Positions 940 through 54,519 of a DNA stretch of 64,000 nt are shown here, piece after piece. This stretch comes from Rhina ancylostomus (Eukaryota). The notes under the pieces were generated by a model that was given only the letters and a program-made list of their open reading frames with translations, ran no database searches and was not told the origin of the DNA. How positions within the stretch are numbered: the first letter of the stretch is position 1; every line of letters starts with the position of its first letter. The DNA lies in contig JARFYF010000072.1 in the NCBI GenBank assembly GCA_030265395.1, positions 3,467,711-3,531,710 of the forward strand, in the 5' to 3' direction. The position numbers and the translations under genes were made by a program.

Positions 940-1486
940 ATTGGATATCCACTAATCTGGCGGAGACGAGACATTTACCATCCTGTTATTTCAGCTGTTG
1001 GACTTCCTGCTAATCAGCTGTCTCAGCTGCATTTGGGGGAAATTGATGTTTAATTCCAATACTCGTAAGTGTTTCTCTCGCTGCTTGCTTTTTCAGAGTC
1101 ATCTGCCCCAGCCTAGCATTTCGATAATGGAATATGTGGGGTCTCTGCGTATTTGGTCTTCTCGAACCAGCTACAATTTCAATGACTTTGATTGTACAAC
1201 CCAGACTGGATTTTTGTCTCCAAATGGTCTGATTTAGAAGCTGGATTCAAACGATCGGCAGGTGGGAACACGAGCAGTTATAAAGAGTTACACGCAATGC
1301 TCTTCCACGGATCCCCGTTATTTCACAGAAGACACAGCGGCGATGTTGCAGCTTCTCAGTTCCTGCACCAACATGTGTATTTACGCCGTGACTCAGAGGA
1401 AATTCCGAGAGGAGCTGAAGAACGCAGTGAAATACCCGCTGAATCGGATTGCGAAACTTTGTAAATCATGGAGAGGAATTGTGTAA
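940..1486 (+). pseudogene. GPR139/142-like GPCR pseudogene with internal deletion (exon 1 remnant plus TM7/C-terminus only)
   Basis: 940..1009 reads (I)GYPLIWRRRDIYHPVISAVGLP+G: 70 nt like the other exon 1s, but ATG>ATT and donor GT>CT. About 1300..1486 reads DPRYFTEDTAAMLQLLSSCTNMCIYAVTQRKFREELKNAVKYP..., homologous to the end of the 30744 ORF. TM2-TM6 are missing. Confidence 0.8.
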
Positions 1487-2899
1487 AACGCGATATTTAA
1501 ATCTACCTCCATGCTCCTAACCCTACATCCTCCACAATAGAGAAGGAGTTAATTATGTTATAAGCAAATCAAAAAATAAACAGCCATTTACAGCTGACCC
1601 CGCAGTACCTATGGCCTCACCCTCCCAGAGATATCCCCCTTGTGCAGCACTTCCCTTCCCCACTCGCCCTACAGCTCGAAACCAGCTCGTTACTTCTTCT
1701 TCCCATTTCCTACAAAGTGCATTGGAATTACTTCCGTTTCTTATTCTGAAGATAGTGCCTGATCTGCTGAGGGAGGCAGTATTTCCGTCGGTGTTTAAGT
1801 TTCGCTCTTGTCTCACCACTTAACTTCCTTCGTTGTAACGTTCTCTTTCGCCTTTCTGTTGATGGTCCTTGCCCTGTACTCTCTTACAATCCCTTCTCTC
1901 TCTCTNNNNNNNNNNNNNNNNNNNNNNNNNNNNNNNNNNNNNNNNNNNNNNNNNNNNNNNNNNNNNNNNNNNNNNNNNNNNNNNNNNNNNNNNNNNNNNN
2001 NNNNNNNNNNNNNNNNNNNNNNNNNNNNNNNNNNNNNNNNNNNNNNNNNNNNNNNNNNNNNNATTTATCTGTTTATCTTTCTCATGCAGTCGAAGTTCAA
2101 TAGGTGATGCAAATGGTAAGTGCCATTCAGACTTGTTCTGTGCAAGAAATAACCCACAGTATGGCTACACTTGAAATCGCATGGAACATGTAAGAAAATG
2201 GTTGTGGGAATGTCATAAATAAGCACATGCCGCAATGTATTGAACCAGACTGCATGGTTGTTCGTGAATTGTCTGTTGAATCCAGCTCTCATTTTACTGA
2301 GGTAACAACGATAAGTGACACGATGACACGAGCATCACGGTTCATCCAGTGATTAAATCAAGCCATACCCCCCCCCCCCCTCCGCCACACAGCTGACTTG
2401 CACAACAAAACAGATGTTATATCAACTGACATCGTACGGGTATCTCAAAGGAACAACTACAGCTTGTGTTCTTTGCGCTCAGAGTGAGTGTGTTAAAGAG
2501 ATGATTGTTGACTTCAGGAATTCGAATGAGGGCGAACATGCACCAGCCAGCAGCGGGAGTCGATAGTAGAGAGAGTCAGCAGTTTAAGATTCCTGGGCGT
2601 TCACATATCGGATGACCTGTCCTGGGCCCTGCACCCAGATGCAATCAAAAGAAACCGCACTAGCGTCTTTACTTTCATAGGAGGTTAAGGAAGATCGACA
2701 CATGTACTGTTGAAAGTTTTCTGACTAGTTGCATCATGGTACGCCAATTGAAATGCGCAGGAACGTAAGAAGTTCCAGAGAGTAGTGGACACTGTTCAAT
2801 GCCTCACGAGTATATCGCTCCCCTCCATCGCTAGAATCTGCAGGAGCCGCTGTCTCAATAAGGCAACATCCCTCATCAAAGATCCACTGCATCTTTGTT

Positions 2900-3052
2900 T
2901 TTAAATTTTATTTACAGCGTGGTAACAGGCCCTTCCGGCCCAACGAGTCCTCGCTGCCCATCTTAAACCCCAAATTAACCTACCCGTACGTCTTAGGAAT
3001 GTGGGAGGAAACCGGAGCACCCGGAGGAAACCCACGCAGACACGGGAGAACG
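2900..3052 (-). mobile_element. tRNA-derived V-SINE (HE1-like), 3' part
   Basis: Reverse complement contains the V-SINE core TTCTCCCGTGTCTGCGTGGGTTTCCTCCGGGTGCTCCGGTTTCCTCCCAC and a CR1-like tail gggccggaagggcctgttaccacgctgtaaataaaa; truncated by a gap. Confidence 0.85.
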
Positions 3053-3152
3053 NNNNNNNNNNNNNNNNNNNNNNNNNNNNNNNNNNNNNNNNNNNNNNNN
3101 NNNNNNNNNNNNNNNNNNNNNNNNNNNNNNNNNNNNNNNNNNNNNNNNNNNN

Positions 3153-3227
<75 letters not shown>
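3153..3227. repeat. (ATCT)n / GATA microsatellite
   Basis: Perfect atct tetramer array abutting an N-gap. Confidence 0.98.
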
Positions 3228-6089
3228 ATTCTCGTGCAGTCGACGTTCAATAGGTGATGCAAATGGTAAGTGCCATTCAAGCTTGTTCTGTACAAGAAAT
3301 AACCCACAGTATGGCTACACTTGAAATCACATGGAACATGTTATCGTGTAAGACACTGGTTGTGGGAGTGTTATAAATTAGCACATGTCTCAATGTACGG
3401 AACTAGACTGCATGGTTGTTCGTGAATTTTCTGTTGAATCAGTTCTCATTTCACTGAGGTAATAACGATAAATGACACGATGACACGAGAATCACGGTTC
3501 ATCCAGTGATTAAATCAAGCCTTAAGCCCCTCCACCACACAGCTGACATGCACAACAAAACAGATGATATGTCAACCGACATCGTCCGGGTATCCCAAAG
3601 GAACAACTACAGCTTGTGTTCTCTGCGCTCAGCGTGAGTGTGTTAAAGAGATGATTGTTGGCCAGGAATTCGAATGAGGGCGAAAATGCATCAGCCAGTA
3701 GCTGGGGTCGATAGTAGAGAGAGTCAGCAGGTTAAAATTCCTGGGCTTTCACATATTGGATGATCTTTCCTGGGCCCTGCACACAGATGCAATCGAAAGA
3801 ACCGCACCAGCGTCTTTACTTCCATGGGAGATTAAGAAAGACGGACTTTCACCGAACACTAACAAACTTTCAAACATGTACTGTTGAAAGTTTTCTGACT
3901 AGTATCATCATGGTCTAGTACGCTAATTCAAATGCACAGGAACGTAAGACGTCGCAGAGAGTAGTGGACACTGTCCAGTGACTCACGGACATATCGCTCC
4001 CCTCCATCGCTAGAATCTGCAGGAGCTGCTGTCTCAATAAGGCAACACCCATCATCAAAGATCCACTGCATCTGGGCCATGTTATTTTCTCGCAGCTACC
4101 ATCGCACAGGAGGTACAGAAGCCTGAAGTCCCACCACCAAAATCAATAACATTTACTTCCCTTTAAACATTCGGTTCTTGAAACAGTCATCATCATTTGC
4201 GTTCGGTTCTTGAAACAGTCGGCTTCATTTGCGTTCAGCAAATAACCACTGGAATCACTTTGCAGTAAAATGTGTTTTGTGATGTTATTTCTTCTTGCTT
4301 TTAAAAACGGTTTGAATTTATATTTAATTTATGTTTTTTTTCAATGCTGTCTATATGATGCTATGGGCCTGTAATGCTGCTGGAAGTAAGTTTTTTTATT
4401 GCACCTGTGAATGCACGTACTTGTGCATTTTATAATAAACTCGACATTGACTGAACCGTGAATGCATCCAAATGAACAGTGCAGGCAGAGGCCATTTGGT
4501 GCGAGTGCTGAACGCCACAGGTGCCAATTCACACTAATCCCTACCCGTTTCCGCTCGTCACATTCTGCCAGCCTCTCCCTCTGTAATTATCTTCATTTCC
4601 CCCGGCACACCAGTCCTTGAACACAGGCTAACTTCCCTAAATACTGCTTGTTCAGGCGCGTACTGTATTTTGGACACTTGCCCTGTAAATCAGGAACTCT
4701 AGACATTCTAACTGGAGTTATTCATGACAGTTACGTTCAAGGACACCGATTTCGAGTCGCTCAGACATGGAAATTTGCCCTGTCCTTGGAGCCATAAACA
4801 TTTCACAAGGGGCATAAAATATAAAAAGCAGTACCCACCGTTCCACGATTTCATTCGCCTCTCAGGAAAGTTCCACACAATTCAATGTCGCGGCGGAAAA
4901 AGAAAACACAGACAAGCGAAGTACAATGTAGGGATTGGGAGCTGGGACAGATATAAACTGGCGGGTATAAATCTGATCTGTCGCGGATGAAGCATAAATA
5001 TTGAGAAGTGGGAAACGTGCTCTATTCACAAACGTCAAATGAATATTTATTTTAATGTTCAATCAGACCTTCACATTTTATATAAACCAATCATCCAAGT
5101 GTTTAGAGAGGGAGAACGGAAAAGCGCCTTGACGTCCTTCAAGTTTCGCGTTTTTCCTTTCTAGATAAAAGGAGTGGACTTACTGCGGCCGAGTTGTGAT
5201 CCAGTTTACGACGAATGGGTAGAAGATGCTACTTCCATGTACCGTAGTTAGAGGAACTCTCAGATCAGAGCAGGTAGGTTATGCCGTATGCACATGTCAG
5301 GTGCGAATAATAGAAGCCCAGAGCCAGTGCAACATAATGCTCCAGGACTGTCACAGACCAATGTGCTGTATCCCAGAGGACACAGTTACGGAATCAGGCA
5401 TAATCTGAGTTCCACTGAGACCTCCTCCTCCAGACTCAGGACAGGACGCAGTGAGAGAACCGCCCTCCGCAAATGTAATCGCAGTTCCAGTAAAACATTC
5501 ACACTCAGCCGCAGTGAAGCAACACCACTCAGTCAAAATCTTAGACTGTTCCAGACCTGGACCACGGCAGAGTGATGCAGGCCCGAACAGCTTTGGGTGT
5601 TGTGCTTTTGAATTCAGTGCTGGGAATGTGTCGTCACTGCTTCGTCCAGGTGAGAGTGACTGGAGATTAAACAACTAGACAGTGCCCGGGAATATACAAC
5701 ACCCGGACAGTAGTTGGCAGAGTGTCACTGATATTACCGTGTTCTGCTCTGAGTGCGGTCTCAAATCCCTTGCATCCAGTTACTCCGACTCCTGCTTCTG
5801 GCCTGATGAGTCCAATATATTCTCCCCGAAACCATTTACCGTTTTCCATATCCGCGTCATATATTTCCCTGCGAAAAAAAAGCTGAGGTAGTACTGCTGG
5901 ATCCATTGTTAATATCTCAGCCTTCGCGAGCATTTTCGGAAGAGTGTCGGACACTGGCAGGATACTGTCATCGAAGATCCTGCATGTCACCCGGCTATAT
6001 ATTTTTATTCACTACGATTGGACTTCTACTTGATTCACAGATCTTCACAAAATAGATACCCTTTTCATGGAAAAGACTCTTGTCATCCG

Positions 6090-10083: not shown

Positions 10084-10153
10084 ATGGGTCATGTGTCAGT
10101 CACTCCTTCAGCGTCTATTTTCTACGTATTTCTTGCGGCAACAGGAGTTACTG
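10084..10153 (+). CDS. GPR139/142-like GPCR gene A, exon 1 (MGHVSVTPSASIFYVFLAATGVT+G); predicted to splice to 29843
   Basis: Exactly 70 nt (23 codons + 1), like exon 1 at 48385..48454, with an ASIFY..LAA motif. Followed by a weak GT donor (gtattc). Intron homology continues at 28579 across a split LTR. Confidence 0.65.
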
Positions 10154-12107
10154 GTATTCTCTTCTGTCTCTTGTAAAAGGCGATGCTCAGTGTTAACTAT
10201 TTTTTTATTAAATTTAAAATTGCTTCTCTCGGTGCTCGTATTTCACAGCTGCTTATTTTCAGCAGCTTCATGATGGAATGTTGAAAACCTTCGCATTCTC
10301 CGTTCCGTTGCAGAATATTACAAATGCAATCCGCATCCATTAACCAAGCAAGGAGTTGCTTCTGCATTATTATCTGCACAACTCTGTGATTATCTTGTCT
10401 AAGTCCACTGGTCGCATTGCTTCATTTGCGTTCGTGGTGTGAAATTAATGTGCTCCTGCTTTCTGAATTTTGTTTTTGATAAATATCCAGATCGCAAAGA
10501 ACCATCTTAGTGCCTAAACCCTTCCAAATAATGTATTACGCTATATCTGTTTTCCCACATATTTCTTACTTTGTTGTTTAACCTTCAATAGCATAGTTTC
10601 ACTGTGTGGGTTCCCAAATACCGTGAACTGAACAAGACTTCCTGCAGACTTTTTCACTGTGTGGCTCCTTCACTGCGGTTACCTTTTCTGCATGTCACTG
10701 GAAATTAATTTAGGTCCAGGGGTTCACAGTTTATCATATTGCAACGCAGAATGGAACCATAGCAAGTAAGAAAACCTTCAATCATCGGTGAATAAATATT
10801 GCAGCAGTTACTTTGGTGTTGGTCAGTTGGACAATGCTACCGCATATCGTTGCACTTTGGGCAATACAACTTGTCCGATGTCTGATGGGAAGAGCCGTTC
10901 GTTTCTCCTCAGTCTGTTAGCTGACTTTCAAGAGAACACTGTGGATGACCAGGCAGACAGTGAAAGAAGTAAACAAGTCAGAGACATTTGACCACAAAAC
11001 AAACTGTGTGAATCGCATCACGATATTTGATGCCGATAAATAGATCACCTGCACAGGATGTGGCAACTGAGCCAGATAAGGGGAAATGTTAAGAAGTTGG
11101 TGCAATAGCAGGAACGGATAAAGGAAGAGTCCGCAATGTGAAGCTGGTAGAAGGAATATCCTTGAAAGAGAGAAAGATCGATCCGAACACATCAGTTTTG
11201 GCAAACTTGCCGCGAATGCGACTCTTCTGACAATCTCATTCTGCTTTCATTGATGTTGCGGTTGAATGAAGAGAAATATTTAGTATTTAATTTTGCTGAT
11301 CTCATGATTCCATCGATATCTCTCCGATATCGTATTCTGGATGTATTGTCAACAGAGTCCATTGGAAAACGTGGACTGAATTGAGTAACCTAATTGCCTG
11401 CAGTCCGTGGTTCAGGTCGTCACAAACTGCCAATAATGCGTGATCAAATTCATAAATTCGTAAGTAGGTGGATGCCGGGGCATTTGTCTTGACGGCAGAT
11501 GCGGACCCGTTTGTCGTTACTAATGACGAGATGAGGGACGTGGAAGGATTAAGAGATGACGGCTTTCAGAACAATCTTCGTCTTTGCTTATTTCCTTGTA
11601 GCAGAGTCCATCACACATGCCGATCAACACCGCCTTATTCTCTTACCACCGAGCTATTCCACGGAGAAACAGAAAAATGTTGCGGGAGGTCAGGGCATAA
11701 GGACAATTAGAATTTAAGGTCGAGCCCCTGGAGATGAGCCGCTGAGTTCCTCCAGCATCTTTTCTGTAGCGACAGATCCCGCATTTACCATCTCTTGTGT
11801 ATACTGCAGCAACTTCTATTGCACATTCCCAAATCCTTTCTCCTTCAGCTGTCCCGGTATCATCCCACTGGCTCAACATTCAGTGGCCTCTTTCAACTTG
11901 ATGCGAATCTGCAAACAGGAAATTCAAGTCAGTTGACAAGGATCTACAAAAAGAAAGGAGTGTGCAAGACAGAACAATACCTATTTCAACAGGCAAAGTG
12001 AAACCAAAAAATGTGAAAACTGACAGATTTTAGAGCTTTCAATACAGGAGAGCTGAGGGTCTAAGGCGTGAATGGCGAAAGGCCAACGTTCCTGTACAGA
12101 AAATAAT

Positions 12108-12278
12108 TGTCATGGTTCTGAGTTCTGGTCCTCAATTTGGCTCCATTAATGCCTTGTTGTCCAGCACATGGATTACATGCTGGACTGATTAGACAACTGT
12201 GCACACCTGAGCCCCATCAGGGCCTAGCATAAGAACCTGTGTTTCTCTGGCACTAGTTGCCAGAGTATTGGTCTACCT
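12108..12278 (+). mobile_element. Gypsy LTR, 5' half (continues at 28410..28578)
   Basis: Starts TGTCATGGTTCTGAG like the LTR at 60957; preceded by ATAAT; ends at an N-gap. Confidence 0.88.
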
Positions 12279-12378: not shown

Positions 12379-13166
12379 ACTTCAGGAAAGGGAGCGGTGT
12401 CTGTGCACTTGCCTACATCAATGGTGCTAAGGTCGAGAGGGTTCAGAGCTTCAGTTCCTGGGAGTGAACATTACCATTAGCCTGTACTGGTCAAATCACG
12501 TAGAAGCCAAGCCAAGAAAGCTCACCAGCGACTCTACTTCCTCAGGAGGCTAAGAAATTTGGTTTGTCCACTTTGCCTCTCACCCACTTTTAACGATGCA
12601 CCATAGAAAATATCCGATCTGGATGTATCACGGCTTGGTACGACAATTGCTCTGCCCAGGACCGCAAGAAACTGCAGTGTTGTGGACACAGCCAAGCACA
12701 TCACGGCTACCAACCTCCCTTGCTGGGACTCTGTCTTTACCTCTCGTCGTATTGGTGAATCAGCCAGCATAATCAAAGATCCCACCCACCCGGGACATTC
12801 TCTGTTCTCTCCTCTTCCACCGTGTAGAAGATACAGGAGCCTGAAGGCACGTGCCACCGGGCTGAAGGACGGCTTCGACCCAACTGTGATAAGACTATTG
12901 AAAAGTTCCCTGACACAATGAGATGGACTATGTCCACGCGATCTACCTTATTGTGACCTCTCACCTTATTGCACTGCACGTTCTCTCCAGCTGGGACTCT
13001 TTACTCTGTACTATTATTGTTTTTAGCTGAATTTCATCAATGCACTCTGTACTAACTCAATGTAACTGCACTGTGTAATGAAATGACCTGTACGATGTGT
13101 TTGTAACACAAGCCTTTCACTGTACCTCGGTACAAGTGATAATAACAAACCAATACAAATACCAAT
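12379..13166 (+). mobile_element. Rex1/Babar-clade LINE 3' end
   Basis: LYFLRRL.KF...TAKHIT...IIKDPTHPGHSLFSPLP..RRYRSLKA; tail gtacaagtgataataacaaaccaatacaaataccaat. Confidence 0.85.
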
Positions 13167-14220
13167 TTAGCAAAAGCAAGGAGTCGTTATTGAAGGGTCA
13201 TATTCTGCATGGAGCTCGGTGACCAGTGGTGTACCTCAGAGATATATCCTGGAACCCTTACTCTGTGACTTTTATAAACCAAATGGTTGAGGAAGTGGAG
13301 GGATGCGTTAGTAATTTTGCAGATGACACGAAGGTGGGAGGTGTTGTGGATAGTATAGAGGACAGTCAGAGGTTACAGCGGAACATAGGATGCAAAACTG
13401 GGTTGAGAAGTGGCAGATGGAGTTCAGCCCAGACAAATGTAAAGTGGTTCATTTTGGTAGGTCAAATAGGATGGCACAGTATAGTATTAATGGTAGGACT
13501 CTTGACAGTGTGCAGAATCCGAGGGTTATTGGGGTACGAGTCCATTGGACGCTCAAAACAGCTTCACAGTTTGACTCTGTGGTTAAGAAGGCATTTGGTT
13601 TATTGTCTTCATCATCGTGGAATTGAATGTAGGAGGCAAGAGGAAATGTTGCAGCTATATTGGACTCTGGTCAGACCCCACTTTGGAGTACTGTGCTCAG
13701 TTCTTGTCGCCTCACTACAGGAAGGACGTGGAAGGCATATAGAATGTGCAGAGGAAATTTTAGAATGCTGCCTGGATTTTGAGCCTGCCTCATGAAAGCA
13801 GGTTTAGTGAACTCGGCCTTTGCTCCTTGGAGCGACGGAGGATAAGGGGGGAACCTGAGAAAGGTGTATAAGATGACGAGAGGTATTGATCGTGTGGATA
13901 GTCAGAGGTTTCTTTCCTCGGGCTGAAATGGTTGACACTAGAGGACATTGGTTTAAGGTGCTGAGGAGTAAGTACAGAGGAGATACCGGGGTAAGCATTT
14001 TACTCAGAGAGTGGTGAGTGCGTAGAATGGGCGGCCGACAACGGTGATGGAGGCGGATATAACAGGGTCTTTTCAGAAACTTTCGGATTGGTACATGGAG
14101 CTGAGAAAAATATAGAGAGTTATGTGTGAGCTTAGTAATTTCTAAGGGAGGCACATATTCGGCACAGTTTTGTGGGCCGTCGGGCCTGAATTGTGCTGAA
14201 AGTTTTCTATGTGTCTATAT
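13167..14220 (+). mobile_element. CR1 LINE RT and 3' end, degenerate
   Basis: SGVPQ, FADDTKVGGVVDS, KWQMEFSPDKCKVVHFGR, LYWTLVRPH; tail gggcctgaattgtgctg...ttttctatg. Confidence 0.92.
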
Positions 14221-14954
14221 AGTACGTGATTTGACAGTAATTCCAAAGGGTGTGGAAAGACACTGCCATTTATTTCTTCCCTGTTGGAGAAATTGCATTT
14301 GGTGTATTCTGCTGGATAACGGAGATTAGGTCATTGTCTTTTCCCTTGCACTGAAATGACAGGGACTTGCGTGGAGAGAGCAACATTATAGTTCCCTTAG
14401 TTTTGGATGTCAGTGGAGGAAGAATCTCACTTTCATGCAGAAAGAGGAAAAGCTGGCGATACTCTGGGGCTGAAGCAACTGCTAACAGAAATCGTCTCCC
14501 TGCATTCTACCCTTTCCTGCATCTAACCTTCCCGATGCCAGAGCGGACACTTCAGGGAACAATCTCAACTGACAGATTACCCACATATCTGTGCCGGAGA
14601 GTCCTGCCTGCTTTTGAGAGGAGGTTCGGATTGGTGCAGAACATTATCGACCGTGCGAATTGTCAGCACAATTAGCAATGGTGTTCGGAAGGGTTAATAA
14701 AAATAAATTTACATTATATGCTAAATTGATCATACACAAATATATGTAAATGTATCGAAAGCTTTACGAATTTGCATACAGTGTTACGCCATTAAAGCAG
14801 CAAAAATCAGATTTTACGTAGAAATAACAACAACTTTCTTTGCAAATCTCACAATCTGAAATGATGCAATGGCCTGAACATTTGGATAACAGGAGACGGC
14901 TAATCTCCGATGCCGCAAGCGTAATACAAAATCACAGCTACACTAACACCTTAC

Positions 14955-15024
14955 CGGGAACATCGACCCCAGTAAGTACAGGATAATAAATTCTAACGAT
15001 GTAAAAAGTTAGTGGATATCTGAT
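14955..15024 (-). pseudogene. Orphan GPR139-like exon 1 remnant
   Basis: Reverse strand reads ATC-RYPLTFYIVRIYYPVLTGVDVP+G|gtaagg: 70 nt, start ATG>ATC. Upstream 15080..15245 is homologous to 41350..41510. No exon 2 found downstream. Confidence 0.75.
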
Positions 15025-17299
15025 TTTCTACCAAAAGTAGTCAGCAGTTCACAAAACGCTACAACTATTCTTATTAACTAATTCAAGGAGTTCTTATACT
15101 CCATACGAAACGGGTTTAGCCAATTGGTTGCCTCCGAAATTACATTCGCCTCAAGCCTCTGAACGAACACTTAGTCTGAACTATCTTTGCTTATTGTGTC
15201 AGTGTACAATATATTTAACTCTTTGAAGGATGTTTGAAGCAAGTTAATTACATTTTGTTTGTACATATTTCGTTGCGAACGTTGCAAGTTTTATTATGTG
15301 TAAACAAGTTTGAGCTGCTGAAACTTTTTTTTGGATCTTTATTTCACATAAAGTTATCTCCTTCAAGTACTGGTCAATTAGAAGATATATGGTTTCACAT
15401 GGACTTGAAGCATGAAGTAAAATTATGTCGCAGTTAATGTGCGGGATAAGCCTTCCTGCAAGGGTATCGTTTAGCTGTCGTCTTGTCCTTCTGGTACCTT
15501 TCGTGCTTCAAGGGACAGAAACGGGCGGATTTAAGTTAAAATGACAGATTTATTGTATCCCCGTCTGTGTCCCATAACGGCAACAATTCTAAACCAATCG
15601 AACAATCTTTTGAGGAGCTCCAGGCGGACAAGCATTTGGCAGGAATAACGCATTGTGTACAGAGACTGCTGATAGTACTTCACAGTACAGAAATCATCCA
15701 CGTGGCCAATTCACTTCACCTCCATGAGCGGTAATGTAGTCCTTACTTTTCGCAAATATTCTACTTACCTGGATTTTTTTCTTCCTTTTGCACTCGATGT
15801 ATCTATGCATGCAAGAATCTGTCGGATTGGCTATCAAACAACAGATTTATCGGCACATATGACAATAATGAATCAATTACTAATCACCAATAAATATTTC
15901 CTGGAATCGTATTGCATCGTTAATTTTGCTGCGTAGTTTTCTGTCTCAGCAAACCTTTCCATTAAAACGGCAATTTCTTCTCCTAGCGATGTTTCACGCC
16001 ACAGACAAAATCAGACACAGAGAAATGGTTCCACTTCTGTTTGCTTGTTTGACTTGTTTTTTACGATTTTATGATTTCATTGAGCGAATTAGTTTATGTA
16101 TCTGTGATTAATTCTGCTCGCACTTCACACCTCCGTGAAACTACTTCGTACATTGAGATGTGGCTGACCCTCATACGCATTGAGTCTCCGACACTCCACA
16201 TCTCGGCCCATTTGTGTAAAACTTTGCCTCTGATTTCACAATTCTTTGCAGATCGGAAGTATATTTTCTATTTATATTACATTGAAATTTGTTACAATTC
16301 TATTTCATAAGTTTCCTTTTGCATTTCCGTTAGCCGGCCAGGCGCCTTTTCCTGCCTCCATTGTTTAATCGGCACACTCCTGAAAATAATGCTCGACATG
16401 CTGGCGATCTCAGCATCGACATCACGCTTTCACCAGTCACCTCTTACAGACTGAGACAGAATAAATAATACCGGGGAATAATGCAATGGACAAAAATAGA
16501 CCAACGAATGAAACACTCTGGAGATAACATTTCTACATTGTTTTGGATGGACTCTAAACCTCTGCTGTAAGGATACTTTGCCTTGTATGTATTTTAAGCA
16601 CAGTGAATAAATATTTGCTGTTTATTCCGAACGTTGTGTGTGGACTTCCGCTCTGCCATCCCTGTTGTCAACTATGTTCTCCAAAGCCTATTTCATCAAA
16701 ACTGTCCCTCTTCTTTGGAACCTGATATCATCCAAATAATTACCAACCAGTAATGTTTATCTTCAGCGCCGACTCTGACATGGTCTGTCCCTGAATAATG
16801 CCTTTAAAATCAGTCAGGGTTTCCTGCTCAAGCCGGTTCGGGGATGTATCTGTGTTATTCGCAGATTAATTTTTCTGCAATCGAACACATGTCTCGCGGT
16901 ACCTCGGAAATAATGTATTTTAATGGTTCCTACCTTGGCTGCATAATTTTGCTTTTCGCTTTTTATCAAAAAGTCAAGAAACCATGTCTTTAATCGACTG
17001 AAAAAATATATAAATATACCTACAATAGAGCACAAGGAACCTCGTAACTGGACAGTCACCGAGACATCATCATTGATCTCTCACTTCAGCGTTACGTTCC
17101 ATTATGGGGCCAGATCATCTCACAGTCTTCAGAATTTGCCTCCTCTAATTTTCCGCCAGAGTGAATGACCGCAGATACATTGATCTACCTCCCACGTCCT
17201 GTTTCATTCTAACCCTGACTCTATCCCCTTAAAAACTACCTTCCTGCCCCTGACAAGTCCGTTTGTTGCTCATCCTTGTGCTCGAAGCGGACCTGGATG

Positions 17300-17575
17300 A
17301 TCACTTCTTCCCTATCGCTGATAAAGAGGCGTCAAGGGCGAAGAATTCTGGGACTGTGTCAAGATTTTTTAACTTATCTCCGGTTAACAAGGAAGGTACC
17401 GGATGAATGGAGAACAGTGAGTGCTATATCCCTAATCAAGAAGGGCAGCATAGGTAAGGCAAGTAATGACCTGTCTGATGGTTTAAAGTCAGAGGCAGGA
17501 AAACTGATCAAAAATATGTCGAAGATTATAAATCCGCGTTTGGAAAGGCAGGGATTTATCAGCGATGATCAGCGT
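17300..17575 (+). mobile_element. CR1 RT fragment
   Basis: KVPDEWRTVSAISLIKKGS...GKL, a degenerate form of VPEDWR.ANV.PLFKKG. Confidence 0.6.
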
Positions 17576-18429
17576 TAATCACTTGCCCCAGTTGTTTCGA
17601 TGCAACTTCTGAGTTAATCACAATTGCTCTCCTGCAACATAAATCGGTCCGTCAGTTTGTTCTATATTCCCAGGTCTTTTTCTCTAGACTCTCCTCCACA
17701 GCGCTCCCTAACCTGTTTCGATGATTGCCCAGGTACCGCACAGATAATGCCAGGAGTTTTTTGCAGTTCATCGGACAGATACATTCTCTTGCAAGGTATC
17801 GATGACACACATGGTTCCTCTTTCACGATGCACTCAGGAAATGTTGTTCGGCTGATACCCAGGCTCGAGCCCCCAGAGACAGGGATATATCACTGTCATA
17901 GACTGGGATGAGCCACTTCTTATTCATCTTAAACTAATCAACACCCTTGGAATTAGCCGTAAGTTGTTGCTGGGCTGCTGGACGCTGCGTCTAATGTTGC
18001 ATTTGCATTTGCTTTGGGGTCTTGTATTAACTTGGGGTCTTCACTTCGAGAATTAAATGATGCAATTAGAGGTCACCAGAAAGAAATAGTAGTTCTATTT
18101 CTCTCTTTCTGAAAGAGTATTACCGTTATTTTCCATTTTCTGATTTCTTTTGTGTTTGTTGTGTAGATTTCTGTGAGTATTCGTTTCATCCTCTGCTGCC
18201 TCAGTGATTTAAACTATCACAAACGATATTAATTTCTTCTACAATAAACAGATGCAGCACTCGGCTTAAATTATAGAGTTCAATTGTATGTGTGCTGCGG
18301 GATACAATCTCCCATTTTCTTACCGTGCAGCCTTTCCCAACTTATTGAGTATATTGACAAGTCGACAGAGAGACTTCTGGGCACAAACACAACGAAGGTA
18401 TGGGAAGGGATCGGTAACACAGGAATGTG

Positions 18430-19560
18430 CATCGACTTTCCTTCGTACCGGGATGATGTTGATGTTATAAAAGCAGGTGGGAACAGCAGATTGAAGTAAA
18501 GAGAGGATAAAATATCTGTAAATACCCCGCCAGCTGATCTGCGCAGGATCTAAGGACACGCAGTGGACTCCGTGCGGGCGAGATGTTTTCCGTGTGTTCA
18601 CTCTCCAGAAGACTGAGCTGACATATACAAAGATGACTATCTGTTCAGGTGCATTGTAGGCTGTCGGGTGAGTGGTATCATTCCATTTCCCTCCTGTTGA
18701 AAACGTGCAAAGAATGCTTTCAGCGCATTGGGGTAGATGTGTTGTGGACAGCGATGCTGCCCGACTTTGTTTGGAGCCCGTTGTATCATGGAAGCCCGGC
18801 TACAACTGACGGCTGGTCTGGTATTCGATTTACGACTGTCATTGTGTCCTGGCATTCTTGAGAGCTTTAGGAAGGTCGCTCCTCGATATCTTGTATTGTT
18901 TTGGGTCACCCGATATGAACGCCGCAGTCCTGGAAGTCAGAAGGGAGTAGATCACCCTGTTCATCCATGGTTTCCGGTTTTGGAACACCACCCAGGTTGA
19001 CCCCGTTGGTGTACCGCCCTCTGCACACGCACTGATAACGTCCGCGACTGTGCTAAAATACTTAACTAGATTAGCTGCTGAGTATTTTTACATGGACCGT
19101 CTACTGACTCAAATAATCTTATGAAAGCTCATCTTACTCCTCGGTCCAACACTGTACGACTTTTTGTGGTGGATCCTCACGTTTATGTTTCTGTTTGTAT
19201 GCAGAGAGAAGGAGCACGGCGTGATGACTTGAGTTACCAAAGTATGAGCGTGTGATGTATCAGCAGGCTTCCTGAACGGTAAATATGCAATGGTCAAGGG
19301 TGTTTGGGATGCTGGTGTGAGAAGAGAGTGCTGTTAGTATTTTGGTTACAAACTCAGTGAAGTTGGCCTGTTTGAAGTCACCGGCTATGATAAATTGTAC
19401 CTCAGGGTATTCCGATTCAAGGTGATTGATCGCGGAGTTTGGTCATTGGAAGCAGGGTTCACAGCCTCTTGGCGTGCAATATCGAATGCCGTCAGGAAAG
19501 CATAAGACAAATGTCAGCTTCATTCAACTGCCATCTCCATGTGTGAAACTTCTGGTTTAC
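18430..19560 (-). mobile_element. Rex1/Babar LINE fragment (APE end to RT start)
   Basis: Reverse strand gives SAINHLESEYPEVQFIIAGDF.QAN, KPWMN-like, NAFFARF-like and SLLQSAVPTCF...IIPV.RK motifs. Confidence 0.75.
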
Positions 19561-20836
19561 CATTTCCAGATGCTTTGCTAAATATCCATTCAAAGAACTC
19601 CAAACATCTGTTTTACTTTTTAATTACTGGAATGATCTGTCTCGCACTCCAGTAGTTTTCTTCATATTAGTACTTCGTAATCGTTTGTTTCGTTAAATAC
19701 TTTAAACAATCTTTTGATACATTGCCTTTTTTTGCAAGAAGATATTTTTCTTCAAGATTGATAGTATCTTCAGCTGTTTTAGTTAACCATCGATAATGAA
19801 TTCTTCCCTTGAAATGCTCCTTCTGCTTGGAATGTATCTATCCGTTGTTTTCATAAAATAATCCTTATATGCTGTCACTGTATGTTGATTGACGATCTGT
19901 TTATCCAATTTCTCGGTTCATATCTGCTCGCACTGTCTCGTGCTCTGTCAGTGAGGAGGTATTTTACAGACAGCTCAGATTTCGCGCCATTAAACAGTGG
20001 AAAAGAGGCGGACACGGAACGACCGTTGTCAGTTGGAAAAATTATAATTCTTTCAGGCAGAGATAGAATTTATTAAATCGATTTGAAACAGTCACTTCAA
20101 GCTGAATCGGCGTCTGCGCAGTGAGAGCCAATCAAAAGTTGTCTATACTAAATTGAAAACGAAGGCGTCCAGTTTCAGTTTCTGCAGGACTTCAAAGGTA
20201 GCAAGGTCGAAAATAAAACAAAACCCACGCAGGAACACAAGAAAGTGGTAGTAGTAGCAATAGGTCACCCCGCCCGGAACACCAGCCCGACATTGAATAT
20301 GATCGTGGCTTCTCCATGGTTGCCCCATCCCCTCTTCTCTGCCAGTTCCCTGTCGCCCTCAGTTCATTTAAATTTCGAATGGTTATTTATGTACACCCTT
20401 CTTATGATCCGATCTCCACAGAAAGTTTGAACAGATAATTGCAAAGACACTCTGCCGTTTGAGTGAAGACATGTCCACGCATTTGAATTTTTAATGAACA
20501 TTTAGGCACGAATCGGCAGGAGTGAGCATGTTCAATGGAAGTGATGACAAGAGATAAATAAGTATCAGCATTAACTTTGTTTGGGTCAGCATTATCTCCA
20601 AGGGTAAGATTTTTGTTGCTGAGTTTTAAAGAACTGTTTCCAATTTCGCTGAAAAGATCAGATGCCAAGGTGCTGAAGTAATATGTGTGTTCAAGTTACC
20701 GTAAATGAGATAAATGAACAGGTATGCTGCGGCCTTGTGCACTATATAAATTGACACCCTGTGGACTGACTCATCTTAGTGTACCTGTCGATAACTGTGG
20801 ATTCCACAGCACGAGTAAACTCGGACAATCACAGAA

Positions 20837-23800
20837 ATGGAACATGTGTCAGTCACTCCTTCAGAGTCTATTTTCTACGTATTTCTTGCGGAAACAGGTA
20901 ATCTGTTCTGTCTCCTGTAAGGCAGTATTACCTGCTTTACTATATTTTAAATTACTTGTATTGCACAGACTACTGTTTATTTTCGGCAGTTTAGTGATGG
21001 GATGTTGAAAGCCTTCGCTTTCTCTGCTCCGTAACAGAGTTGTATAAATGAAATCCGCATCCATTAGCCAAGGAGGGAGTTGCTACTGCATTATTATCTG
21101 TACATCTCTGTGATTACGTGGTCTAAACGCATGGATCGCTGCAGTTACTTTCACAATGCCCAGTTGTGAAAATCATGTGTATCTATTGTGTAAATTAAGT
21201 TTTTGATAAAGATGCAGCTCGCAAAGAGCCAACTTAAAGCATAACCCTTCCAAATAATTTGGTATGCTTTATCTGTTTTCCTCCATATATTTTATTTTTT
21301 TTTTAACCTTCAGTAACATCGTTTCACTGTGTAGGTTCCCAAATACTGAGAACTGAACAAGATTTCCTGCAGACTCTTGCACGGTTCCTTCATTGAAGTT
21401 AGATTTTCCGCATGTTACTGGAAATTAACTCAGGTTAAAAGGATCAAAAATTGTAATAGACCTATAGCAATGAATAAAACCCTCAGACATCGGTAAGTAA
21501 ATTTTGCAGGAGTAACGTTGATGTTAGTCAGTTAAGCAATGCCTCCGCCTATGGTTTCACTTTAGACAAGACAAACGAATGCGATATCTCATTGGACGAG
21601 ACCTTCGGTTCATTGCCTTTGAAGAGACTTGTATGACTCGTTGAGACGTAGCAGACTGCAAAAAATAAACTATTCAGGGATGTTTGACTAATAAAAAAAA
21701 CTCTGTGTGAATCACATCAAGCTATTTGATACTGGTGAATGGACCACGTGCAAAAGATGTCGCATTTGAACCGGGTGACACCATTGGAAAGCGTGGATTG
21801 AATTTCTTAGCGTACCTCATCGAGAATGCCTGCAGTCCGTGGTACTGTTCAGGTCCCCACAAACTGACACGCATGAGTAATCAAATTCATAAATTCGTAA
21901 GTAAGCAGATGCCGGAGTGTCTGTCCTGTCGCCAGATGTGGACTAATTTATTGTTATTAATAACGAGATAGAAGGACGTGAAAAGATAAAGAGATGACAT
22001 CTTTCAGAACAATCTTAGTCTCTGCTCATTTCCTTGTCACCAACTCTATAATACATGCCGATCAACACCGCCTCATTCTCTTACCACCGAGCTATTCCAC
22101 GGGCAAACACAGAAGATGCTGCGGGATGTCAGGAATCAGGCAATACCTGTGGAGGGAAATGCACATTCGGCCCTTCGGATTTAGACTCTTCAGCTGATCC
22201 GTTGAGTTCCCAGGGCTCTTTTCCAGGGCACCAATGCTTAAGGCAAGAAGGAATGGATTTTAAATAATGTGGGGGGAGTTCAGGGGGAATGTCAGATGGA
22301 GCTTTTCATGCGCTACCTGGGGTGGTGGTGGAGGCGGATACGTTAGGCAGGTTCAAGAGGTTGTTGGATAGGCATATGGAGGAATGTGGTATAGAAGGAT
22401 ATGCGGGAGGAAAGGGTCAGATGGTGAGAGGTGTGGTTAGATGGGCGGTACAACACGGTGGCCCTAAGGGCCTGTATTATGCTGTATTGTTCTATGGTTC
22501 TGTGTTTCCTTTAGCAACTTATATGTTGCTCCAGATTCCAGCATCTGCAGTATCTTGCCTATAACTCAGACACCTTCTGTTGCACATTCCCAAATCGTTT
22601 CTCCTTCAACCTTCCCGTTATCTTCCCACTAGCTGAAAATTATACAGCCTCATTCAACTCGATCAGAATCTGCAAATAGGACATTCAAGTCAGCCAGCAA
22701 AGATCCGCAAATTGGAAGGACCGTGCAAAATAGAACATTACCCGTTTCCGCATGCAAAGTGAAACAAAAAAATGTAAAGTGACGTATTTAGAGCTTTGGA
22801 AGCAGGAAAGCTGGAGTATCTAACTCATGAATGTCAAAAGGCCAGCGTTCCCAACCATGAACTAATCACATAAAGCAATAGCGATAAATTCAAGGACAAC
22901 TGAATGCAGAAATACGGAGGTGATGCTTCAGTTATTCAGTCAGTGCGACCGCATGAAAACTCCAGGACTCTGCGTTTCTTTAAGGAAGGGTTACAAAGTG
23001 TTCCAAGTCATTAAGAAGTACAGTCTACATGTTATGAGAGGTTGGTTTTGAAGTAAATCACTGACAGGCCAGACTTGTATCCCGAATTTCCCAGAATAAG
23101 AGGGGACAAAGGAATCAGGCAAGGTGCCGAGAATCATGCAACGGTGGATGTCGAGAGGATATTCAGTCTTAAAGGAATGTTCAGAACTGTGGGCCGCTGT
23201 TTAATAATACTGTGAAGCCAAAATGAAAACAGAGAAGACGCTATGTTTATTTTTTTTCTCTCTTGGTGGTTGGTGATTCTTTGGAACTACTTCTCAAACA
23301 TAAAGATGGAAACGGGGATCTTCAACACCCTTACAGATTTACAGATTTACAGATACCTGGTGAGATGGGCAAGAGAAGTTACGGCGGGGAGCGGGTTGTA
23401 TTGGTTCTGATCACAACCCGTTCAGTCATCAACGCATTAAATGGCGGAACAGATTTGAGGGCGGAGGGGTCCGATGCTACCTCTAAATCCGATGTCCATA
23501 TGCAAATCGGTATGATTAGAGTCAGCATCAGAAGGAATTACTCATCTAGGCAGCAAACACGCTGCCGTTCGCCGATTATCCCCCTTCGTGCTCATCAGTA
23601 CGGAGTTGCATGCGAGATTCACTATTTGGGTTCCGCTCCAGGAATCTCCCCCAATCTCCCTCAACAGGACTGCGCCTACGGCTGGTTCTCTCTCTCTCTT
23701 TCTCTCTTTCTCTCTCAGTCTCTGTCTCTCTCTCTCTCCATGTGTGATAACCAATACAAGCTTTAAATTAGTTTTCAATCGTTGTCCCGTCCTCTGAACG

Positions 23801-24832
23801 TGATGTCCGGGCCCAGTTTCTGTCTTTTGATGCACTGACACACATGAAAAGTTTTTCTGACAACCAACGAACTCATGTTTTGTTCCTTGCTCACATTAAT
23901 TATTTCTCAATTTCTTTTTCTCTCTGTTTTGGTCAACTTGGTGGCGATTGTGATTCTGTCCCGAGGGAAGTGCGATCTCTCCAAATGTATCACTCTCTAC
24001 CTGGTCGGAATGGCAGCGGCCGATCTCATGGTGGTGTTACTGACGTCATATTAAGGTGGATTCCTGTGATATATTTCCGATGTTCATTCTTGTTCATTAC
24101 TGCGGTGTGCCGTATCATTTACTTCCTGATTTTGCATCCACCGTGGTGTCTGTCTGGCTGACAGTCGATTTCACATTTGATCGATTTGCAACTCTCTGTG
24201 GTGTGAAGCTGAAAACAAATTCTTGCACCGAGAGAACAGCGGCCGTGGTTGACGGTCCAGTGAGTGTGCTGGGCTGCTTGGAGAGTGCCCCCTGGTGTTT
24301 TACGTTGACATCTGGCTCAATTGTTAACAATGTTCCCTGGCGCTGTCTGAATAAACCAAGCTTATACAAATCAGCCGCCTGGACGGCATTTAACCTATTC
24401 CATCGCATTTTAACCCCGTGTTCTGTTTTTCTTTCTGATTTTGATGCTCAATATTATCACGGTCAGACGAATTTTAGCGGCCAGTAGAGTCTCCCACGAG
24501 CTCTGGAGCCGCAGAAATGGAGAGAATGCTAAGGACCGGAGATGGAGAACCGAAGGAAATCCATCGTTTTTATTCTTCAGTATAACCGATAGTTTCATAT
24601 TGTTGTGGCAACACGGACTGTCTTTTACATGTATAAGCAAATTACCCATAATTATTATTATTCCCCCTCTGGCCTACTTTACGTCATAGAAATCACAGCA
24701 GCAAAGCTTTAGCTTCTCAGCACCTGCATCAACACGTGTATTTATGCCCTGACCCAAATCAAATTCAGAGACGAGCTAAAGAACGCTGTCAAATACCCAG
24801 TCAATGCGATAGATAGATTTATTAAACAATAA
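20837..24832 (+). pseudogene. GPR139/142-like GPCR pseudogene (paralog of gene A): exon 1 20837..20897, exon 2 23933..24832
   Basis: Exon 1 is MEHVSVTPSESIFYVFLAET+G|gtaatc (9-nt deletion vs 10084). Exon 2 is closely similar to 29843..30744 but has acceptor AG>GG, a frameshift near 24130, further indels and an in-frame TAG at ~24708. Confidence 0.9.
22214..22505 (+). mobile_element. CR1 3'-end insertion, specific to this paralog block
   Basis: Same tail family as 7330..8125; absent at the equivalent position (~11750) of block A1. Confidence 0.85.
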
Positions 24833-46723: not shown

Positions 46724-47622
46724 TTATCGGCAGAGCAGCCCATTTAATGTGAAGACATATCTCACTCCATTCTTCAACTCAGTCCTGAATTTTCTTTGAG
46801 TCAGCGTGTAGATGCACGTGTTAGTGCACATACTGAGCATTTGCAAAAAAAATCCGACCTGTTGCAGGATATATATTGGGTTATTCAAATATCTGTCTGT
46901 GTAACGAGAATTTTGCGGTTGCCAGTTCATAGAATGTACAACATAGGGCATCCATAATAAGATGAAATTAGCTGATATAGCGAACAACAAAATCATTGAT
47001 TTTCTTCGGTTCTCCACCTCTTCATCCTTCTGATTCTCGATGCTGTTTCGAAGTCCTCTGCGTACTTTATTTGCCGCTATGATATGTCTGACTGTTAACC
47101 CATTGAACAACAGAATTAAACAGATTGGTAACAACGGTGTCAAGATACTGTCAAGTAACTCGTAGGCTTTCCACGCCGATGAGGTAAAATATTCAGCCTT
47201 AAAGACGCATTGCCATGGAATGTTGTCTATTATGACGTCAGGCTCCACCATAAAGTAAAATGGGACACATCTCCCGCAGCTCACGACAACCACGGTCACT
47301 ATAACTACAGTCGCTGTTTTCTCGGTGCAGTATCGTTTTCGGAGGTTTTGGCAACAAATTGCGATAAAGCGATCGAAAGTGAAAACCACTGTTAGCCAAA
47401 CGGAACAGTCCCTGGTTACAACCCTCAGTACTTTAGTCAGAGCGCAAATTGGAGTAATGAATAAGAAATTAGTATACAAATAGATAAAGTTAGTCTGTTC
47501 CACTAAAGCAACAACGATAACCACCATGAGATCTGCTGCTGCCATTCCAACCAGATACCGGGTGATACATTTGGAGAGTCCGCATTTTCCCCGGGAGATA
47601 ATCAAAATCGCCGTCAAATTAA
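46724..47622 (-). CDS. GPR139/142-like class A GPCR gene B, exon 2
   Basis: Acceptor ttttttcatttgcag|TT AAT TTG; NLTAILIISRGKCGLSKCITRYLVGMAAADL, SVWLTVVFTFDRFIAICC, LLWMP, SMCTNTCIY, RKFRTELK. Open to the stop codon. Confidence 0.95.
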
Positions 47623-48384: not shown

Positions 48385-48454
48385 CAGGGATAGCAACCGC
48401 TGCAATTGCAGGATAAAAAATGCTCGCTATGTAATAAATTGCTGAATATCCCAT
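48385..48454 (-). CDS. GPR139/142-like GPCR gene B, exon 1 (MGYSAIYYIASIFYPAIAAVAIP+G); full protein 322 aa
   Basis: aaaATGG Kozak-like start and canonical donor G|gtaaga. The 762-nt phase-1 intron joins in frame to 47622. Confidence 0.9.
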
Positions 48455-48604
48455 TTTCTGTCGGAAGCAACGAACACGTGTGCTGTATGTGCGAACTGTC
48501 CATACGTACTGGTGATTGGTTTAGCAAACTCTAATATAAGAGAAGTAAACTCCACTGAGACAATTACTGTGATCGTAATTCTCAGTCACATCAGGCACAT
48601 CCCA

Positions 48605-49399: not shown

Positions 49400-49820
49400 G
49401 GCAATATTGGATGGTTCGACCCTCTCTTGTTGGACATGGTCATGGTCTGGAAATCTGTTGCCCGTAAATTACGTATGATTGGTCAATCTATTCCTGAATA
49501 TCTTGGTGCACGAAGCCATGACATGCTTCATTCTTGGGCAGTTGCAAATGGAACTGAAGGACAAGAAATCATCAGCGAGCATTCACACCTTTGACATACT
49601 CATGGATGGAAATTCATGAATGAGGCAGTTGAGAGCAGTTGGACCCAGCAGACAGTTCTGAGGGACTCTCACAGTGATCCCCTGGGGCTGGGATTATGGA
49701 CTGTTGGAAAACACACCATTTTTACATAGTGAGAGATATGATTTTGACACTTGGTGTGTCTCACTTCTATTTCCCGTTGAATTCAGTTTTAGCTACGTTT
49801 GTTGATGCTACGCTCCAGCA
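49400..49820 (-). mobile_element. Degenerate CR1/L2-group RT fragment
   Basis: Reverse strand resembles a decayed GVPQGSVLGP..FSCFI...V.MLADD segment. Confidence 0.55.
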
Positions 49821-51983: not shown

Positions 51984-53204
51984 TGTAAATGATAACGTTC
52001 GCCAAATCGAACAGTTCATGGATACAGCCCTCAGTACAAGTATCAAGGCGCAAACCGGGGTAAAGAGCAAGACACGGCATAAATATAGATATAATTTGTG
52101 TGTTCCACAATAGCAACAACGAAAATCACCATGTGATCTGCTGTTGCCATTCCCATCAAATACGGTGCGCCGCATTTGGAGAGTCCATATTTTCCCCGAG
52201 ATAGGATCACATTCGCCGTTAAATTAACTGAAAGGAAACAACGAGAGTTATTCCAACGGTCGAAACTGATCAGTTTCAGTTGACAAATCCCCTGGACTGT
52301 GCAGAATGGATCCCAGTTCTCTGATCCAATGTTGTAAATAACTGACTTAGAACCTCAGCGAGGAAATGAAGTCCGTCCAGGCACCATCACGTCTTTCCGT
52401 CTGGAGGACAGCGCCGGACTGGTGTGACAGTTGCGGCGGCAAGTCTCCTTCGGATAACAGCAGGGGATCTGCAGTCCACAACAGTACGGTGAACTCCTGA
52501 TTGCATCGTGATCGAGACTTGGCCCATTCTTGGAGCAGGAAATTCTGCAGGTAATAAAATGAACTCGTTGAGATTGTATCTTTCAGCAGAGCATATTTTG
52601 GAAGTAGAAACATAGAATGAAAATCAAAACTGGCAAAAAGAACTCTAATGGGGCAAACGCTATATTTCTTTATGTTATTGTTAAAAATGAAGAGACATTC
52701 AGACAGGGGAAAAAACACTTCTCTTGTGCTGAGTTATGGTAAAAAAAATATGCGCGTGGAAAGTAAACTGACATTTCCGTGAAAGTGATGACCGGTTGTT
52801 ATTCTAATTTTTCAAGTTTCTCTCCTGATTCAGTCTGTTACCCAGAACAACATATACCGGTAACGTTACCAAAAGTTTAGTAAGGTAAAATGCTGGAGTA
52901 ATGTCAATATTATCGCCAACTTAATTGATGAAGCAAGTGGATATCAAATCGATCAATATACATTAAGATAAAGAAAAAATAAAACAATCAGCTGCTTGAC
53001 ACCTCGTCATTCTGGAAATACTTATCAGCAACTGAGGCAGCAACTGTGTTAGGTATCAAGCGACGATCCTACAGTGTAGCCGATACAGCAAAACGAGGAC
53101 ACGACACAAACACTACCCAGCTCCAGTATCAGACCAGCAATAACAACAGCTGCAAGCGCAAGATAGAAAATACTCGCTATGCAGTAAATTGTTTCATATC
53201 CCAT
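51984..53204 (-). pseudogene. GPR139/142-like pseudogene (duplicate of gene B), truncated after TM3
   Basis: Exon 1 53135..53204 is MGYETIYCIASIFYLALAAVVIA+G|gtctga. Exon 2 from 52227 reads NLTANVILSRGKYGLSKC..YLMGMATAD, frameshifts near 52072 and ends at CSIWRTLSFT. Intron and ~850 nt upstream are homologous to gene B. Confidence 0.88.
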
Positions 53205-54519
53205 TTTTGTGTGAAGCAGCATCAATGGTACTGAAGGTTCCAAGTTCCAAGTATCCACAAGTGATTTATTTAACAAACTCTTAATCAAGAGAGGGATGTT
53301 GCACTGAGTCAATACTGTGTTCATCTCCACAGCCATATCAGGAACAAAACATTGAACAAACATTCAGGGTAAAATATGCTTACTCATTTGTAACGGAGTA
53401 ATGAATGTGACTCTTCACTGGAAACTACAAGCTGTGAAAAAATGTTAAGCTTCTTCGAAAGAGATTGTTGCAAATTCAATTTCTATGACACGAAGTGTCA
53501 ACTGCTGAAAAGGAACAATTCCTTGAATATGTATCATTTTTCACATGGGCAATCAACTTGAAATCGGCAGCATTTGTCACATTATGCGGTTCACACTGAG
53601 CTTCTGAAATTAGGAAAGGGAGATTGGGTTGGCAGGTAAAACAGTACACGTCTCCCGTGAAGGGGAAGACTCATCCCTCCCTTTGGCTTTCTGGAAGTAT
53701 TCATGCTCGAAATCACAGGGGCAACTGAGGACAGTTATTGCAATAAAAATATACTGTATTCATTTACCCCGGAGATATCAAATCATCCGCATCTATACTA
53801 GAGTCACCTGTGATGAACTCACGGACAACCGAATCACAAAACTGTCCAGGTGTAAGAACGATGTTTCCTAACACAAAGCACCTGTACTTCTTCAACCGAG
53901 AGACCTGACCACCTCACTTTACCCCATGGGCGTTTGTTGCAATCTCATTTTTATATTTATACAATAATCTCGATGTCTTTTTGTAATTCTTCTAAGGTTC
54001 TGATCAGATCACAATTGTTCCCACGCCATTTCCTGCATGAATGTAGCTCATAAGGATGATTGTTTCGGAGGTTACCATGCCGATCACTCTTCTAGTACCA
54101 AATAGCTGTAATAATGTTTCCTTATTTATTTAAGGTGTCTTGTCTTTAATTTGCCACCACTGTCATCATCCAACAGCATTGCTGGTGAAATACACAAAAC
54201 ACCATACAATGACAACGTATAATCCTTGCGTTGTGCTTTTGTGGGAAATGCCGCCCCATGTTTACACCTCACGAAACACTGTCGGACTATTTCTAATTGT
54301 CTCTAGGTTCCAATCCAACATGGTCAGCCACCAGTCACTGGGTCTCAAAGACATGAAATATCTCGGTGCCCTTCCCCATCCATTGTCGTCTCACTTTCCA
54401 AATTCATCACCAACCTAACTGCATTGCAGAGCGGTGAGTGCGCTCTTCTCCCCTGCTTCAGGACCATTAGGACCATTTTCATCTGATAAGAGTGCTCGAC
54501 TCTGCACCCTTTGCTGAAT

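Follow-up and report, generated by a model that had tools for sequence, protein, structure and literature searches.

The genome of Rhina ancylostomus carries a real and very large family of class A G protein-coupled receptors (GPCRs) that is neither GPR139 nor GPR142 and is apparently undescribed. The analysis concerns a stretch of 64,000 nucleotides, referred to below as the window (assembly GCA_030265395.1, contig JARFYF010000072.1, positions 3,467,711 to 3,531,710 of the forward strand), for which a reading made from the letters alone (the sequence-only reading) had proposed a birth-and-death cluster of GPR139/142-like receptors resembling odorant or taste receptor families. The 64-kb window holds six gene units of the family (two intact genes, three pseudogenes and one orphan exon 1) and would be a section of a single cluster among many, all made of two-exon class A GPCR genes that have multiplied in sharks and rays. 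In both size and age the family goes well beyond one cluster. Its members are numerous and clustered, with gains and losses of genes; their intracellular face hardly varies, their pocket is hypervariable, and they share a compact promoter. Judged by its sequences, it is probably a chemosensory, likely olfactory, repertoire.

Four protein searches of the genome gave at least 132, 133, 132 and 132 matches, with about 3,500-3,700 candidates in each. Two motifs, one in transmembrane helix 7 (TM7) and one in the first intracellular loop (ICL1), were derived from 71 intact exons, with the reversed motifs as controls. Genome-wide, the TM7 motif has 602 exact matches, a firm floor, against 5 for its reversed control, and the ICL1 motif has 557 against 0. 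The 98 and 93 matches on scaffolds C1-C55, the part with a complete listing, form 43 pairs; capture-recapture scaled up from this part gives about 900 loci carrying at least one of the motifs and a total of about 1,300 (1,080-1,650), a figure that fragments and uncollapsed haplotypes would inflate and differences among subfamilies would deflate. Exon 2 was intact in 19, broken beside a run of N in 12 and broken without N in 9 of a random sample of 40 loci, drawn from 148 listed and biased towards motif-bearing loci and the cluster on C12. By rough extrapolation some 400-600 intact exons would be present genome-wide. The median identity among the 124 distinct intact exons compared is 51%. The proposed expansion with birth and death is thus borne out by hundreds of loci, about half of whose sampled second exons are broken or gapped, and 602 exact matches with some 1,300 estimated loci leave no room for a family of only a few copies.

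Clusters were observed on C12, C46, C50, C53-C57, C62, C64, C65, C70-C72 and C81, mostly near scaffold ends. On ten large scaffolds, 76 of 86 motif matches are less than 6 Mb from an end (against an expected 26%; the matches are not independent), a position that reflects either a true subtelomeric location or an effect of scaffolding.

Two database searches yielded 2,125 and 2,319 relatives. A species is named in 113 and 118 of the best 120 rows of each; every one is a shark or ray, the label is almost always GPR139, and no chimaera entry appears among them. Subfamilies are common to sharks and rays. The true GPR139 (C112) and GPR142 (C50) are separate single genes elsewhere in the genome; the former is 88% identical to bird GPR139 and 99% to a stingray entry, and the family is 24-34% identical to it among the rows compared. 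The phase-1 intron that the sequence-only reading placed in TM1 lies just before N1.50, and the resemblance to GPR139 that it named is confirmed by the same intron in the genome's own GPR139 and GPR142.

In a tree of 24 rows (LG+G4) the family forms one clade (100/100) that is sister to GPR139 plus GPR142 (100/99), and the three stand together (100/100) against eight other receptors of the genome, so that they do not group with another GPCR family. A tree of 39 rows, made by a quick search under a mixture model, has the same shape, with a Shimodaira-Hasegawa-like approximate likelihood-ratio (SH-aLRT) support of 100 against 12 outgroups and a long-branch warning; both trees were built without invertebrate relatives, FMRFamide/sex-peptide-receptor or Srw receptors, odorant receptors (ORs) and T2Rs. 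Nesting of the family with GPR139 or GPR142 is modestly rejected (approximately unbiased test, p-AU 0.034, LG+G4). An origin as duplicates of either gene is rejected on the 24-34% identity, the separate orthologues and this test. The term "GPR139/142-like" therefore holds for kinship and the shared intron; the family is, however, a separate sister lineage and no set of duplicates, and the aromatic amino-acid site is not kept. If the tree shape holds, the lineage would be older than the split of GPR139 and GPR142, and it would have been lost or left unexpanded in bony vertebrates.

Two further observations touch on this history. At L146 (C72:2806807-2807685) and C72:2825490, a low-copy, divergent subfamily, 66-80% conserved across sharks and rays, has a PRA1-family gene at a distance of 18 kb, and one entry from Mobula carries the label of a RABAC1 isoform. 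The arrangement may serve as a synteny anchor for the origin of the family. The GPR142 exon of the genome (C50:8900869-8901576, L143) contains a run of 10 N with a change of frame across it.

Six-frame translation and tblastn were used to find the gene content of the window. First exons begin at 940, 10084 and 20837 on the + strand and at 15024, 48454 and 53204 on the - strand, and four decayed pieces of exon 2 lie in three places. The features are as follows:

940..1009, + strand: pseudogene 1 exon 1, with ATT at the start codon and CT at the donor
1289..1465, + strand: pseudogene 1 exon 2 remnant, TM7 and helix 8 only, the remainder deleted (tblastn E 2e-17)
10084..10153, + strand: intact exon 1 of 70 nucleotides (nt), GT donor, TATA upstream; most likely that of gene A (paralogue on C1105)
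12379..28309, no strand: 16-kb piece flanked by two 100-N runs, inside one short interspersed element (SINE), at about half depth in run X1
14955..15024, - strand: orphan exon 1, with ATC at the start codon and the GT donor retained
20837..20897, + strand: pseudogene 2 exon 1, 61 nt, with a 9-nt deletion relative to the exon 1 at 10084
23932..24829, + strand: pseudogene 2 exon 2, acceptor AG gone, several frameshifts, 88% DNA identity with gene A
29843..30744, + strand: gene A exon 2, intact (7tm_1 E 1e-20)
46724..47622, - strand: gene B exon 2, intact (7tm_1 E 4e-25)
48385..48454, - strand: gene B exon 1, 70 nt
48534..48566, - strand: gene B promoter, with a homeodomain-type site abutting an Olf/Ebf (O/E)-like site, then a TATA-like box
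51984..52228, - strand: pseudogene 3 exon 2, with a frameshift and truncation in TM3
53135..53204, - strand: pseudogene 3 exon 1, 70 nt, promoter element decayed

Gene B is complete, its 70-nt exon 1, 762-nt GT-AG intron and exon 2 together encoding 322 amino acids. The exon-1 peptide of 22-23 residues agrees with the very short N-terminus described from the letters alone. A 70-nt exon 1 had been ascribed to all loci; not all have it, with 61 nt at 20837 and 67, 73 and 76 nt elsewhere in the family. The cluster does not reach 53362 as had been thought, the last exon 1 beginning at 53204. Also present in the window are a Ty3/gypsy-type retrotransposon gag frame between SINE copies (61716-62405, + strand; Retrotrans_gag E 2e-10) and an 870-nt repeat of 85% identity at 2063-2894 and 3213-4073, either side of a 100-N run.

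No exon 1 for gene A was found near its exon 2, between 27848 and 29843. A paralogue on C1105, 88% identical to gene A, has an exon 1 like that at 10084 and a 3.3-kb intron, two parts of which match the window at 10-11 kb and 28.6-29.3 kb. The flanks of the 16-kb piece (12102-12278 and 28410-28578) correspond to neighbouring parts of a single SINE copy. Depth in run X1, a hint only and no measure of copy number, is 19-24 on long contigs over the exon 1 at 10084, gene A exon 2 and gene B, and 8-12 on contigs inside the piece; contigs of this run end at SINEs, and a direct join of the gene A intron is not visible in them. Because of the layout of the C1105 paralogue, the SINE halves, the 100-N bounds and the roughly halved depth, the exon at 10084-10153 is most likely gene A's own; joined to 29843-30744 it yields 972 nt in frame with one stop, or 323 amino acids. 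The 16-kb piece, which includes pseudogene 2 and the orphan exon at 15024, is likely misplaced or one-haplotype DNA. The paralogue's exon and intron layout and the split SINE led to rejection of the exon at 10084 as a true orphan, and the 88% identity of pseudogene 2 to gene A excluded an allelic origin for it. All seven loci of the sequence-only reading (two intact, three pseudogenes, two orphan first exons) were located as described; since the exon at 10084 belongs most likely to gene A, they make six gene units, and gene A is counted as intact only if this join holds.

The products of genes A and B both match 7tm_1, and GPR139 is their best solved-structure match by sequence (E 1e-10). Pfam gave besides 7tm_1 only weak Srw/Srx matches, the Srw match belonging to gene B, and no OR, V1R or TAS2R family profile was matched at E 0.01. 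The features of class A receptors are present: 7tm_1 over the cut-off, TM helices, the DR motif, C3.25 (82 of 84 intact exons) and a cysteine in the second extracellular loop (ECL2; 82 of 84). The structure predicted for gene B exon 2 is a class A bundle with an ECL2 hairpin (predicted local distance difference test, pLDDT, 82.8). The cysteine pair noted in ICL1 is a family trait (of 84 intact exons, 83 have C14 and 81 have C19). These two, a pair at the end of TM3 and one in ICL2 are near-invariant intracellular cysteines that could be lipidation or metal sites.

Genes A and B agree in the cell interior and diverge outside, as had been seen in the intact pair: identity is 74% in the inner TM halves (67/90), 15% in the pocket (4/26) and 38% in the extracellular loops (20/53), the pocket positions being the usual class A set, fixed after the entropy table had been seen. 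Across the 84 intact exons entropy exceeds 3 bits at 3.29, 3.32, 3.33, 2.65 and 6.54 and is near zero at DR, RRKS and NTxIY. The tryptophan/phenylalanine site of GPR139 is given as F3x33, H5x43, W6x48 and N7x38 (PMC5430874). W6.48 is kept in 81 of 84 exons, F3.33 in 19, H5.42 in 18 and N7.39 in 5, and on these residues the aromatic amino-acid site appears absent from the family.

To assess selection, a purpose-built codon site-mixture model was fitted to four groups of closely related paralogues (sets A, n=19; B, n=26; C, n=24; D, n=27). In set A, which holds gene A, the likelihood-ratio test (LRT) statistic is 51.9 (26.6 without loop columns) with 10 selected sites, and in set C it is 123.7 with 13; all of these sites are in the pocket or loops. 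Pocket omega in these two sets is 1.3 and inner TM omega 0.2-0.3; the inner TM value is about 0.2 in all four sets. Null simulations (three each for sets A and B) gave LRT values of at most 0.1, and a pairwise homoplasy index (PHI)-type test detected no recombination in any of the four sets.

Forty-five first exons with 400 nt upstream were reduced to 31 promoter groups that can no longer be aligned with each other. A lenient TATA pattern occurs in 29 of the 31, 61-92 nt upstream of the ATG, which makes the ATG-bearing exon the likely first one. Some 22 nt upstream of the TATA box, TCYC-NN-KGGAG is found in 22 of 29 groups with one mismatch (6.6 in shuffles, 3 in far windows), and a strict O/E palindrome with two mismatches allowed in 16 of 29 (3.1 in shuffles), the O/E-like element being counted where it is no more than 40 nt from the TATA box. 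In 6 of 31 groups a TAATTR homeodomain site abuts the element with no spacer (0.15 in shuffles). Element plus TATA has 27 matches genome-wide at 25 places, against 16 for the control; 12 of the places precede an intact exon 1 of the family, 7 a decayed one (judged by eye), 1 a run of N and 5 nothing, and one of the 19 that precede an exon 1 is a promoter used to define the pattern. Homeodomain, O/E and TATA combined have 15 matches against 2 in the control; 11 precede family exons, most of them training loci, and no olfactory gene was found at any of the four others. A near-canonical arrangement of the three was seen at C52:108875983 (L250), with no gene identified within 10 kb.

Published mouse OR promoters contain O/E, homeodomain and TATA-binding protein motifs (PMC12547500), and a composite Lhx2/Ebf motif is described for OR enhancers (PMC5608512, PMC7804114); the element of gene B resembles one published mouse composite sequence, which has one more base between its sites. 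A compact TATA promoter with a positioned O/E(Ebf)-like element across subfamilies, new here, resembles the control elements of mouse odorant receptors, and the layout may be taken as a lead towards olfactory neurons, not as proof.

In the scheme that these features suggest, every receptor would recognise its own small ligand carried by the water (an amino acid, an amine or a short peptide). Binding is placed in the TM pocket because so short an N-terminus would not suffice for it. One transducer, likely of Gq or Go type and acting through phospholipase C and Ca2+ by analogy with GPR139, would serve all members. Ebf, with a LIM-homeodomain factor in some subfamilies, would drive sparse expression in sensory neurons. 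A bolder version is offered more tentatively, as possible though not yet likely: a further vertebrate olfactory receptor family of sharks and rays, mammalian-OR-sized, would descend from an old lineage, sister to GPR139/142 and missing from bony vertebrates, and would have been wired independently to the Ebf/LIM-homeodomain programme of olfactory neurons. This reading, if true, would resolve why animals whose sense of smell is keen seemed to have only tens of receptors.

Several results weigh against an olfactory role. Positive selection is not significant in set B, which holds gene B (LRT 4.5), and there is none in set D (LRT 0, rate scale at the edge of the grid); pocket omega in both is 0.24-0.28. 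The suggested site-wise dN/dS comparison is accordingly divided, with positive selection in the pocket and loops of sets A and C and purifying selection even at the pocket in B and D. Acidic residues are conserved in the pockets of sets B and D (D3.37, E/D5.39, D5.42), and so some subfamilies appear to be tuned to a fixed ligand class and others to be diversifying. A fold search, which does not separate class A receptors from one another, ranked GPR139 twelfth among near-equal peptide receptors. The promoter patterns were fitted to the same promoters in which they were counted, and the element departs from the canonical O/E palindrome. The homeodomain spacer is one base shorter than in the mouse composite (the mouse spacer occurs in 1 of 31 groups), and the site is absent from the promoters of subfamily C. 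The promoter of gene A has a TATA box and a Forkhead-type site, without the O/E-like element. Ebf factors act also in B cells and other neurons. Finally, Mayeur et al. (PMC11979771) report expression outside the nose for OR, TAAR and some V2R genes of the catshark, and therefore the type of a family does not fix its tissue.

It is unlikely that the repertoire belongs to immunity or barrier tissues, with receptors on leukocytes or epithelia that sense microbial peptides or metabolites as FPR or MRGPR clusters do. Among immune receptors, too, there are large families in clusters whose pockets are under selection and whose copy number varies; Ebf1 acts in B cells; and a conserved basal member lies 18 kb from the PRA1-family gene, whose human counterpart, RABAC1, is on the immune-receptor-rich 19q13 arm. 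However, the 31 promoter groups have no enrichment worth noting over shuffles for ETS (17.0 against 17.0), Runx (8.0 against 8.4) or NF-kB (2.2 against 1.0), the clusters are spread over many scaffolds, and family members are without the long N-termini through which chemokine-type receptors bind.

A role as internal sensors of metabolites or peptides, which would extend what GPR142 and GPR139 do to the gut, gonad, rectal gland or brain, is likewise improbable. The nearest relatives are tryptophan/phenylalanine and peptide sensors in brain (PMC5430874, PMC12208981); Forkhead-type TGTTTRY and bZIP-like TGAYGYAA sites lie upstream of the O/E-like element in 14 and 20 of 29 groups (about 5-6 in shuffles), and the acidic pocket of sets B and D would fit such a role. 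Yet internal signals seldom need hundreds of receptors or high pseudogene turnover, GPR139 and GPR142 are both kept separately as single copies, and their binding residues are not retained in the family. A mostly non-adaptive origin, by repeat-driven duplication at scaffold ends with a count inflated by uncollapsed haplotypes, would suit the 21 of 40 sampled loci that are broken or gapped, the crowding of matches (76 of 86, not independent) near scaffold ends and an assembly of 65,984 contigs with likely misplacement within the window, but is very improbable given inner TM omega of about 0.2 in all four sets, divergence far beyond the allele level (median identity 51%), subfamilies common to sharks and rays, and a positioned promoter element retained where flanks no longer align.

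Cartilaginous fish have been held to have very small chemoreceptor repertoires, with a few dozen V2Rs dominant; Mayeur et al. (PMC11979771) list 2+6 OR, 3 ORA, 3 TAAR, 2 TARL and 32 V2R genes in the catshark, and a preprint (bioRxiv 2025.06.08.657570) puts the largest V2R cluster reported in a ray at 65. Several hundred intact receptors with diversified pockets have escaped notice as a family, since every member goes by the name "probable GPR139" in databases. The available main text of Mayeur et al. does not contain "gpr", that of the Squalomix tandem-gene survey (10.1101/2025.06.08.657570) does not name the receptor family, and term searches of the available text of 10.64898/2026.10.27.761883 and 10.1101/2023.01.12.523848 found no mention of GPCRs; no description of the family was found in the literature searched, most subscription papers lying outside it. 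Whatever its tissue, the family would rank among the largest gene families of shark and ray genomes, and if olfactory it changes the account of how vertebrate smell evolved.

Three known systems come closest to the family. With GPR139 and GPR142 it shares the phase-1 intron before N1.50, a homologous end of exon 1 and one clade in the tree; unlike them it has a far shorter N-terminus, a longer ECL2 hairpin and third intracellular loop, and hundreds of copies in place of one. FMRFamide/sex-peptide-receptor-like and nematode Srw receptors, with which GPR139 has itself been placed (PMC12208981), are its Atlas neighbours by features and structure. With the OR, TAAR, V1R/ORA and T2R repertoires it has in common clustered birth and death, compact genes, a short N-terminus, a variable pocket, selection on pocket and loops in two of the four sets, and in most promoter groups an O/E-like element with a TATA box, whereas its ancestry is other than theirs and its intron lies inside TM1. 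On balance, the sequences favour a family that is not an OR, TAAR, V1R or T2R by descent, yet is chemosensory-like by anatomy.

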